From: Escherichia phage KM01
Sequence record: PV018827
Strand: one strand, 5' to 3'
DNA: 64,000 bases
The notes under the pieces are model-generated. The model did not search any database. It was not told where the DNA came from and saw only the letters and a list, made by a program, of their open reading frames with translations. Made by a program: the position numbers and the translations under genes. Position 1 is the first letter of the stretch, and the number at the start of each line of letters is the position of its first letter. Below are positions 45,383 to 46,039 of the stretch, piece by piece.

Positions 45383-46039
45383 TTAACTCTCCAAAGTTTT
45401 CTTCAGAGCTGCCCACGAGATTGGGTAGAGTTTAGCCATCTCTTCATCTAGAGATTTAGCAAACACTCGAACTTCATATTGAGCGTGAGAGGAGAGTCGC
45501 TGACGGCACAACTCAAACCAGCCATACAAAGAACCAGTCCACACCCACTCAGTGATCATCCCCTGAGGAAGAACAAATCGAGCTTGCTCTGGTGCAATAA
45601 ATTCAATCAACTTGTCATATGCTGCTAGAGAAGCTTCATATGCATCGTTAATCAACATTAATGCTTCAGCTCGTTCTCCATCGATGAGTTGAACCCCTGA
45701 ACCTGCATGGAGGTCCGAAGGTCTCGCAAAAATCTCTTTAGGGATGAAGACTTCAACTGCTCCATCTTTATACCGCCGGGACATTTCGTTCCACGAGAAT
45801 CCAACCTGATGCTTGCCCAACTGTCTCGCAATTGCGATAGGTGCTTTGCATCGGAAACTGACTTGCGGGTGTCGGAATGGGGTAACATGCTTCTCTCTTG
45901 CGAGGAAGTTGATGAGACGTTCATCACGTTCATTTAAATCACCTTCACGGGTTACGCCAAAGGAAACTCGAGCTGCGTTTACTACGCTACGATCACTTCC
46001 CATAGCTTCGATTAATGTTGCTTGTAGTTGTTCATTCAT
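45383..46039 (-). CDS. thyX: Flavin-dependent thymidylate synthase homolog (ThyX-like) with divergent signature
   Basis: Aligns by eye to ThyX (AARVSF..., KAPIAIARQ, SRRY, SSHAQYEV) but the RHR signature reads KHQ. Confidence 0.7.
   Translation of the reverse strand: MNEQLQATLIEAMGSDRSVVNAARVSFGVTREGDLNERDERLINFLAREKHVTPFRHPQVSFRCKAPIAIARQLGKHQVGFSWNEMSRRYKDGAVEVFIPKEIFARPSDLHAGSGVQLIDGERAEALMLINDAYEASLAAYDKLIEFIAPEQARFVLPQGMITEWVWTGSLYGWFELCRQRLSSHAQYEVRVFAKSLDEEMAKLYPISWAALKKTLES

Follow-up and report, generated by a model that had tools for sequence, protein, structure and literature searches.

The 64,000-nucleotide stretch of DNA from Escherichia phage KM01 (sequence record PV018827; hereafter, the window) contains a thyX gene (45383–46039, minus strand; 218 amino acids) whose product reads K-H-Q at the site of the R-H-R triad of the ThyX signature. 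Does such a protein still make thymidylate, or does the altered triad point to another chemistry? The initial annotation of the window entertained both an ordinary thymidylate synthase that tolerates the substitution and an enzyme of altered chemistry. The former is favoured here, KHQ being the hallmark of a whole subfamily and its gene a housekeeping gene in bacteria. Judging from its sequence, the thyX product is very probably a functional flavin-dependent thymidylate synthase, which converts deoxyuridine monophosphate (dUMP) to thymidine monophosphate (dTMP) and aids the supply of thymidine triphosphate (dTTP) together with the phage dCTP deaminase (Dcd) and a deoxynucleoside monophosphate (dNMP) kinase. 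The gene is already known and annotated as a thymidylate synthase, and KHQ is the usual motif in its branch of the family.

The 8 kb around thyX share 96–98% nucleotide identity with Escherichia phages ev_rybdy3, CHD5UKE1, SU10 and about 100 further records. SU10 is classified in the genus Kuravirus of the Gordonclarkvirinae (phiEco32-like podoviruses). The window thus belongs to a Kuravirus coliphage of the phiEco32/SU10 type.

Family assignment and the altered motif

The thyX gene was identified as an open reading frame (ORF), with support from Pfam, NCBIfam and Protein Data Bank (PDB) matches and an AlphaFold 2 (AF2) model. Its start codon is ATG, located 9 bases past an AAGGA ribosome-binding site. 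The Pfam profile Thy1 (PF02511) matched the protein with an E-value of 1.8e-43 and a score of 149 bits (cutoff 24.8); residues 8–206 corresponded to profile positions 1–190 of 191, i.e. the alignment ran from end to end. With 129.2 bits, the match to the NCBIfam equivalog TIGR02170 (thyX) exceeded the cutoff of 87.9. The closest relatives with solved structures were ThyX of Thermus thermophilus (Tt; 6j61, E-value 2.4e-31) and ThyX of Thermotoga maritima (Tm; 1kq4, E-value 6.9e-25). The AF2 model, computed from an alignment of 26 subfamily sequences, reached a pLDDT of 93.3 and a pTM of 0.87. In a Foldseek search of the PDB, the top 50 matches were all TmThyX (TM-score 0.77–0.82; E-values of about 1e-17 to 1e-18), and superposition of the model on TmThyX gave a TM-score of 0.81. 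A chance or artefactual match to ThyX is ruled out by the profile E-values of 1e-37 to 1e-43 and the confident fold model. Homology places the protein in the ThyX/Thy1 family. Its likeness to ThyX over the full length had been proposed from the stretches AARVSF, KAPIAIARQ, SRRY and SHAQYEV; all four are present in the ORF, and both the Pfam and the TIGR02170 thresholds were passed.

The replacement of RHR by KHQ was borne out by pairwise alignments with Tm and Tt ThyX. Residues K76-H77-Q78 (codons AAG CAT CAG; 45806–45814, minus strand) occupy the canonical site, Tm R78-H79-R80. The codons for S87-R88-R89-Y90 (45770–45781, minus strand) correspond to Tm S88-G89-R90-Y91; the catalytic Ser, Arg and Tyr are kept, and the Gly is replaced by an extra Arg. 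The segments FRHRIA-SYNELSGRY (Tm) and FRHRTA-SVNEISGRY (Tt) aligned with GKHQVGFSWNEMSRRY of the thyX protein, which has one additional residue ahead of the catalytic Ser (X8, not X7). Read literally, the signature R-H-R-X7-8-S is absent: the protein has K76-H77-Q78-X8-S87, with both arginines substituted and with a His, a Ser and a spacing that are compatible with the signature. The X7-8 spacing is reportedly the one given by Ulmer and colleagues in an abstract of 2008.

The residues that bind dUMP or take part in catalysis, namely R72 (Tm R74), S87, R89, Y90 and R181 (Tm R174), are all found in the thyX protein and are essentially invariant among 153 aligned sequences. The Ser, Arg and Tyr of S-x-R-Y were kept in 151–152 of these sequences and R72 in 137; R88, which is Gly in Tm and Tt, occurred in 143. 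H51 (Tm H53), Q73 (Tm Q75), E85 (Tm E86) and R154 (Tm R147) are also conserved near-invariantly in the subfamily and presumably play the roles of their TmThyX equivalents. In all, the ThyX of T. maritima (TM0449; 1o26) and T. thermophilus (6j61) have the same fold (TM-score 0.81, 33% identity) and the same length as the thyX protein, and canonical ThyX shares with it the substrate-site and catalytic residues Tm H53, R74, Q75, E86, S88, R90, Y91, R147 and R174. The differences are R78 to Lys, R80 to Gln, the X8 spacing, G89 to Arg, and the lack of an equivalent of Tm R165.

In canonical enzymes, the RHR motif forms hydrogen bonds to the adenosine monophosphate phosphate and to the flavin mononucleotide (FMN) phosphate and ribityl of flavin adenine dinucleotide (FAD), and only its first Arg also contacts the isoalloxazine ring and dUMP (PMC6514825). 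The substrate is held by this first Arg, by R87 of the Mycobacterium tuberculosis (Mtb) enzyme, by the Ser, Arg and Tyr of S-x-R-Y and by a C-terminal Arg, Tm R174 (PMC6514825); we equated Mtb R87 with the Arg of the A-R-Q stretch. Ser88, Arg90 and Tyr91 have been emphasised as catalytic (PMC11940539). The view, taken in the initial annotation, that the RHR arginines serve to bind dUMP is therefore not supported: they act mainly on the FAD phosphates and ribityl, the first Arg (here Lys) being the exception (PMC6514825). Since the dUMP-binding and catalytic residues are present and the first Arg is conservatively replaced by Lys, the substitutions fall mostly on the flavin-pyrophosphate site and not on the substrate site.

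Distribution and genomic context of KHQ-type ThyX

By its motif and its nearest relatives, the thyX protein belongs to a sister, KHQ-type subfamily and not to the RHR-type of the characterised enzymes. In the 120 nearest protein clusters formed at 90% identity, which reach down to 54% identity, the motif was KHQ in 119 and KSQ in one. A wider, alignment-based census covered the best 150 representatives of 50%-identity clusters from an exhaustive HMMER scan and gave KHQ in 77, KHK in 16, RHT in 8, RHQ in 6 and RHR in a single one, with other variants scattered. In a curated alignment of 26 subfamily members (39–80% identity), K76, H77, Q78, G80, W83, E85, S87, R89 and Y90 were invariant. Such invariance is the mark of a functional site under purifying selection and not of one that is decaying. 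The subfamily loop A-R-Q-x-x-K-H-Q-x-G-x-x-W-[NS]-E-x-S-R-R-Y is matched by the window sequence ARQLGKHQVGFSWNEMSRRY.

A six-frame regular-expression search for KHQ + X8 + SRRY revealed 48 motif instances in cellular-genome loci, and 68 of the 80 motif instances in viral loci were of this form. A degenerate-pattern scan of IMG/VR returned at least 600 such genes, against only 49 loci when 185,579 bacterial and archaeal species, each represented by a single genome, were scanned in a similar way. These numbers, together with the cluster surveys, identify the KHQ type as a large, predominantly viral ThyX subfamily. The initial annotation had asked whether the variant is common among bona fide ThyX enzymes; it proved to be the invariant hallmark of this large subfamily. 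A change specific to kuraviruses is ruled out by the homologue surveys (cluster sets and IMG/VR). Ser took the place of the middle His of the triad in 16 of 153 aligned sequences (K-S-Q, R-S-T and similar), so that every one of the three RHR positions varies within this portion of the family. One of the members with Ser is a protein of 232 amino acids from a 91 kb contig (P0094).

Among cultured phages, the ThyX proteins of phiEco32, SU10, Paul, EK5 and other members of Kuravirus are 98–100% identical to the thyX protein, occupy the same genomic position and show no substantive difference. Its match to the 'ThyX-like thymidylate synthase' of EK5 and Paul is 100% identical, and for the phiEco32 protein the value is 98.6%; Kuravirus homologues are already labelled 'thymidylate synthase thyX/thy1'. 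The ThyX of other cultured phages (Pseudomonas phage O4, Pectobacterium phage phiTE, Roseophage SIO1, Erwinia phages Faunus and Farigoule) come from different virus families and display 40–55% identity to the window protein. Those of O4 and phiTE, whose sequences were read, belong to the same subfamily with the same loop and KHQ, are annotated as thymidylate synthases, and show the same linkage to replication genes, ribonucleotide reductase (RNR), PhoH or thioredoxin. The SIO1 protein is of the same subfamily and is likewise annotated as thymidylate synthase, but has KHK with X7 spacing. The Faunus and Farigoule proteins, compared by identity and not by motif, are 52–54% identical by tblastn. 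The KHQ-type motif was also detected in T7-like, Zobellviridae, Certrevirus and Chaseviridae phages. No annotation or paper commenting on the KHQ motif of Kuravirus ThyX was found.

Gene neighbourhoods were counted in the 80 viral loci. The neighbours included DNA polymerase A (38 loci), T7-type primase-helicase (31), RNR (31), MazG (16), endonuclease I (15) and T7-type RNA polymerase (10). In a 304 kb phage contig, the gene for dihydrofolate reductase lies directly upstream of a KHQ-type thyX; in a 98 kb phage, such a gene is adjoined by NT5C, NrdAB and NrdD. Dcd, PhoH, thioredoxin and a ferritin-like gene surround thyX in a Salmonella 7-11-like phage, as they do in the window.

Many of the cellular matches fell into four sets (Chloroflexota, Nitrospinaceae, Poribacteria and Spirochaetia), each syntenic over several metagenome-assembled genomes (MAGs). 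In a 1.79 Mb Spirochaetia chromosome (OZ251568.1), KHQ-type thyX is flanked on one side by citrate synthase and oxidoreductase genes and on the other by pyrD, pyrF/pyrE, pyrB and a dihydroorotase-like gene. In Chloroflexota it follows 2-oxoacid dehydrogenase E1/E2 genes; in Nitrospinaceae it adjoins ispH, mlaA and acrB, and in Poribacteria the genes for an enolase-superfamily enzyme and an aminotransferase. The occurrence in four bacterial lineages, with housekeeping neighbours and conserved synteny, rules out a restriction of the KHQ type to phages and prophages. Because it is kept among housekeeping genes, the KHQ-type gene at these loci is very likely the cell's thymidylate synthase. One Phenylobacterium KHQ locus is prophage-like, with MT-A70, GcrA-like, helicase and primase genes. 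Fragments of KHQ-type ThyX were also seen in Herbiconiux daphne (a 526-bp contig; 69% identical to the kuravirus protein) and Deinococcus alpinitundrae (a 267-bp contig); they look like phage or contaminant reads and not like genes of those bacteria.

For the gene in the window little is at stake in these observations, given that it is an already annotated phiEco32-like thymidylate synthase with the motif normal for its branch. Their significance is for the family. In the main phage-borne branch of ThyX, the textbook signature does not hold at the level of sequence; the 'universally conserved' RHR fails for a large, mostly viral subfamily, which also serves some bacteria. RHR is used for recognising ThyX and in reasoning on inhibitor design, ThyX being a studied drug target. 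From the structure of a KHQ-type enzyme one would learn how FAD is bound when two of its usual arginines are missing.

Probable thymidylate synthesis and alternative functions

If the thyX product follows the standard ThyX route, it would convert dUMP to dTMP with methylene-tetrahydrofolate, FAD and NAD(P)H. The methylene group would pass from methylene-tetrahydrofolate to the flavin N5 and on to C5 of dUMP, followed by reduction by the flavin. In the flavin-phosphate-binding loop of the subfamily, R-H-R-x7-S-G-R-Y is replaced by K-H-Q-x-G-x-x-W-[NS]-E-x-S-R-R-Y. Within it, Lys76 may supply the positive charge of the first Arg for dUMP and the isoalloxazine ring, Gln78 may form a hydrogen bond to an FAD phosphate, and Arg88 of S-R-R-Y may compensate for the lost guanidinium; the subfamily-specific Arg88, Gly80 and Trp83 would remodel the loop. 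At the level of the pathway, phage Dcd would yield dUTP, a dUTPase, presumably that of the host, would convert dUTP to dUMP, ThyX would form dTMP, and the putative phage dNMP kinase would form dTDP. The net effect would be to tilt the pyrimidine pool towards T at the expense of C for the replication of a genome with a G+C content of 42%. A pathway that boosts dTTP suits this phage because its genome is rich in A+T (57% in the window).

Several points weigh against this assignment. The authors of the study on phages SP-15 and PhiW-14 warned that sequence alone cannot tell a thymidylate synthase from a hydroxymethyl-dUMP synthase (PMC5977210). Solved structures are lacking for ThyX of the KHQ type, and the literature yielded no biochemical study of such an enzyme. 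Finally, two arginines of the FAD-pyrophosphate site, Tm R80 and Tm R165, have no counterpart in the thyX protein; cofactor binding must therefore differ in detail. The role of Tm R165 was taken from our own equation of this residue with R165 of the Helicobacter pylori (Hp) enzyme and Mtb R190.

The last point leads to an alternative that refines the assignment as a thymidylate synthase: the protein would make dTMP, with materially different cofactor handling across the KHQ subfamily. FAD might, for example, be bound more weakly or be exchangeable, FMN might be used, or the reductant or the oxidase behaviour might differ. Such a difference would stem from a remodelled pyrophosphate site (R80 to Gln, no equivalent of R165, and the new Gly80, Trp83 and Arg88). 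In the Mtb and Hp enzymes, the FAD phosphates are bound by the RHR motif and an Arg of the neighbouring subunit (PMC6514825). In the subfamily, the third Arg is replaced by Gln, Thr, Lys, Val or His, the Ser variants of the middle His add to this, the position aligned with Tm R165 is Tyr in the thyX protein and variable elsewhere, and Gly80, Trp83 and Arg88 are both conserved and subfamily-specific. However, ThyX of T. thermophilus likewise has no equivalent of R165, and its depositors call it a flavin-dependent thymidylate synthase; Lys and Gln could still bind phosphate. We regard such a difference in cofactor handling as possible but rather doubtful.

Far less probable is an altered chemistry, in which the methylene group is transferred to dUMP but the product is not dTMP; hydration of the exocyclic methylene would, for example, give 5-hydroxymethyl-dUMP. 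This product could feed a thymidine modification in kuraviruses, perhaps elaborated by the amidoligase/glutamine amidotransferase (GATase) cluster. Acid quenching of the ThyX reaction reportedly traps 5-hydroxymethyl-dUMP, which speaks for this chemistry. So do the annotation of ThyX as the sole thymidylate-synthase-like protein in the 27–67 kb region of SU10, the many EcoRI, EcoRV and EcoKI sites retained in the window, and the amidoligase/GATase/ATP-grasp/GGACT cluster, which lies on the same strand 6.5–16 kb upstream of thyX (52.5–62 kb). Gordonclarkvirinae resist restriction-modification systems, and neither a modification pathway nor an inhibitor is known for them (PMC11990801). A Thy1 paralogue of phage SP-15 was hypothesised, though not demonstrated, to be a hydroxymethyl-dUMP synthase (PMC5977210).

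Against these points stands the breadth of the motif: KHQ, with the same invariant residues, is shared by bacterial housekeeping genes and by T7-like, Zobellviridae, Certrevirus and Chaseviridae phages, and the kuravirus protein carries every subfamily-invariant residue without any departure from the consensus. The suggested link to the amidoligase cluster found no comparative support: such a cluster was nearby in 1 of 128 fetched loci with a ThyX relative, a weak test because flanks of 6–10 kb may miss genes at a distance of 6.5–16 kb. Amidoligase and GATase genes have been published for LUZ24-like and OM43 phages, which are unrelated groups, and a role in cell-wall modification was suggested there. 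The BASEL authors reported no known modification pathway in phages of this kind (PMC11990801). In a 47 kb contig of a Cellvibrionaceae MAG (L025), homologues of the ATP-grasp-like, GATase, amidoligase and COOH-NH2 ligase genes are located no more than 10 kb from a KHQ-type thyX. This contig was the sole such locus fetched besides the kuravirus-like ones and is probably a phage contig binned into the MAG.

Two known systems invite comparison. PolB of polyoxin biosynthesis (4p5a), which we take to be a UMP/dUMP C5-methylase, is a detectable ThyX homologue (E-value 1.4e-16), far more distant than genuine ThyX. The role taken for PolB implies that the ThyX scaffold is able to change its substrate; the window protein falls among the thymidylate synthases and not with PolB. 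Phage SP-15, with proven hypermodified DNA, encodes a highly divergent second Thy1 copy (gp130) beside a normal-looking ThyX (gp9), and gp130 is the precedent for the idea that a phage protein of the Thy1 family may make a modified pyrimidine (PMC5977210). In contrast, kuravirus thyX is a single-copy, subfamily-typical gene in phages with no demonstrated DNA modification. No paper tying phiEco32 or Kuravirus ThyX to a function or to DNA modification was found in the literature. Nothing in the present evidence supports an altered product. The specific claim that kuravirus ThyX, or the KHQ-type subfamily of phages, releases a C5-functionalised dUMP such as 5-hydroxymethyl-dUMP instead of dTMP is likewise very improbable. 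If true, the release of hydroxymethyl-dUMP would represent the first flavin-dependent (ThyX-type) hydroxymethylase; it would be the entry to an undiscovered thymidine modification and would explain the restriction resistance of the Gordonclarkvirinae.

The restriction sites of the window bear on the same question. EcoRI (15 sites), EcoRV (32), HindIII (36) and EcoKI (9) sites are not avoided. Of CCWGG (Dcm, EcoRII), for which base composition predicts about 75 sites, there are 3; PstI, KpnI and SacI sites are absent and BamHI has a single site, versus about 11 expected for each; GATC and GGCC are depleted as well. Site avoidance is ruled out as the cause of resistance to EcoRI, EcoRV and EcoKI, whose sites are plentiful; something must therefore protect this DNA. 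To our knowledge, uracil-DNA phages such as PBS1 encode no thymidylate synthase. DNA containing deoxyuracil was proposed for these phages on the basis of Dcd and a nucleotidyltransferase (PMC11990801). The intact thyX argues against a simple substitution of dU for dT, and points the search for the restriction protection of these phages elsewhere.

Least probable of all is that the protein is a relic that has lost its activity or has no catalytic role, for instance one that binds dUMP or folate and is kept for another purpose: although the literal signature is broken at two of three positions, the substituted residues are invariant over sequences that are 39–80% identical, S-x-R-Y, R154 and R181 are intact, thyX is kept at 98–100% identity across kuraviruses, and the KHQ-type gene is a housekeeping gene in bacteria.

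Neighbouring genes in the window

The gene for dCTP deaminase, dcd (48154–48687, minus strand), is located upstream of thyX and was identified by PF22769 (E-value 3.7e-34), TIGR02274 (107.6 bits versus a cutoff of 92.8) and phrog_1663. The initial annotation had placed it in one operon with thyX. Its identity and its strand were upheld by the PF22769 and TIGR02274 matches, but a shared operon was not, the two genes being 2.1 kb and seven ORFs apart. A consensus scan revealed a terminator-like hairpin between them (46544–46572, minus strand), with an 11-bp stem and a weak T tail. Terminator-like matches in this region were no more frequent than in shuffled sequence, and the hairpin is a candidate. 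The interval also contains three tandem, paralogue-like small ORFs (47538–48153, minus strand; 69, 69 and 65 amino acids), all encoding basic proteins with the C-terminus V-[IHY]-Y-Y or similar; SU10 has four of them at this place.

A thioredoxin gene (46055–46330, minus strand; PF00085, E-value 9.6e-13) ends 15 bases upstream of thyX. The grouping of thioredoxin, PhoH and ThyX is repeated in the Salmonella 7-11-like phage and in Pseudomonas phage O4. Near thyX, a ferritin/Dps-like protein annotated as 'DNA binding protein' is encoded at 46580–47191 (minus strand; PF00210, E-value 3e-07), and the ferritin/Dps-like gene of the Salmonella 7-11-like phage (7666–8106 of locus L052) is near thyX too. 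The thioredoxin, PhoH, ThyX and ferritin-like genes move as a group.

The putative dNMP kinase, which would convert dTMP to dTDP, is encoded at 31956–32855 (minus strand). It matched phrog_139 (E-value 3.1e-54) and its SU10 orthologue is annotated as dNMP kinase, whereas no Pfam or NCBIfam match was obtained.

Directly beside dcd, a nucleotidyltransferase of 456 amino acids is encoded at 48697–50067 (minus strand; phrog_12715), with a weak match to the Pfam PolyA_pol head domain; its C-terminal part of about 130 residues is seemingly of low complexity and acidic. This is the gene picked out by the BASEL authors as a possible DNA-modification factor (PMC11990801).

Two further small proteins were noted in the window. 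A stand-alone protein of 109 amino acids (44261–44590, minus strand) comprises nothing but the NAD+-binding Ia domain found at the N-terminus of NAD-dependent DNA ligase (PF22745, E-value 2.1e-35). Its SU10 counterpart is labelled 'DNA ligase', yet the protein has neither an adenylation nor an OB domain. A protein of 173 amino acids (33900–34421, minus strand) resembles the macrodomain half of the DarG antitoxin, a DNA ADP-ribosyl glycohydrolase (NF048014, E-value 7.4e-42; 143.8 bits, i.e. under the full-length cutoff of 250), and its SU10 orthologue is annotated as 'Appr-1-p processing enzyme'. This DarG-like protein could serve as counter-defence against DarT-type ADP-ribosylation of thymidines in DNA.

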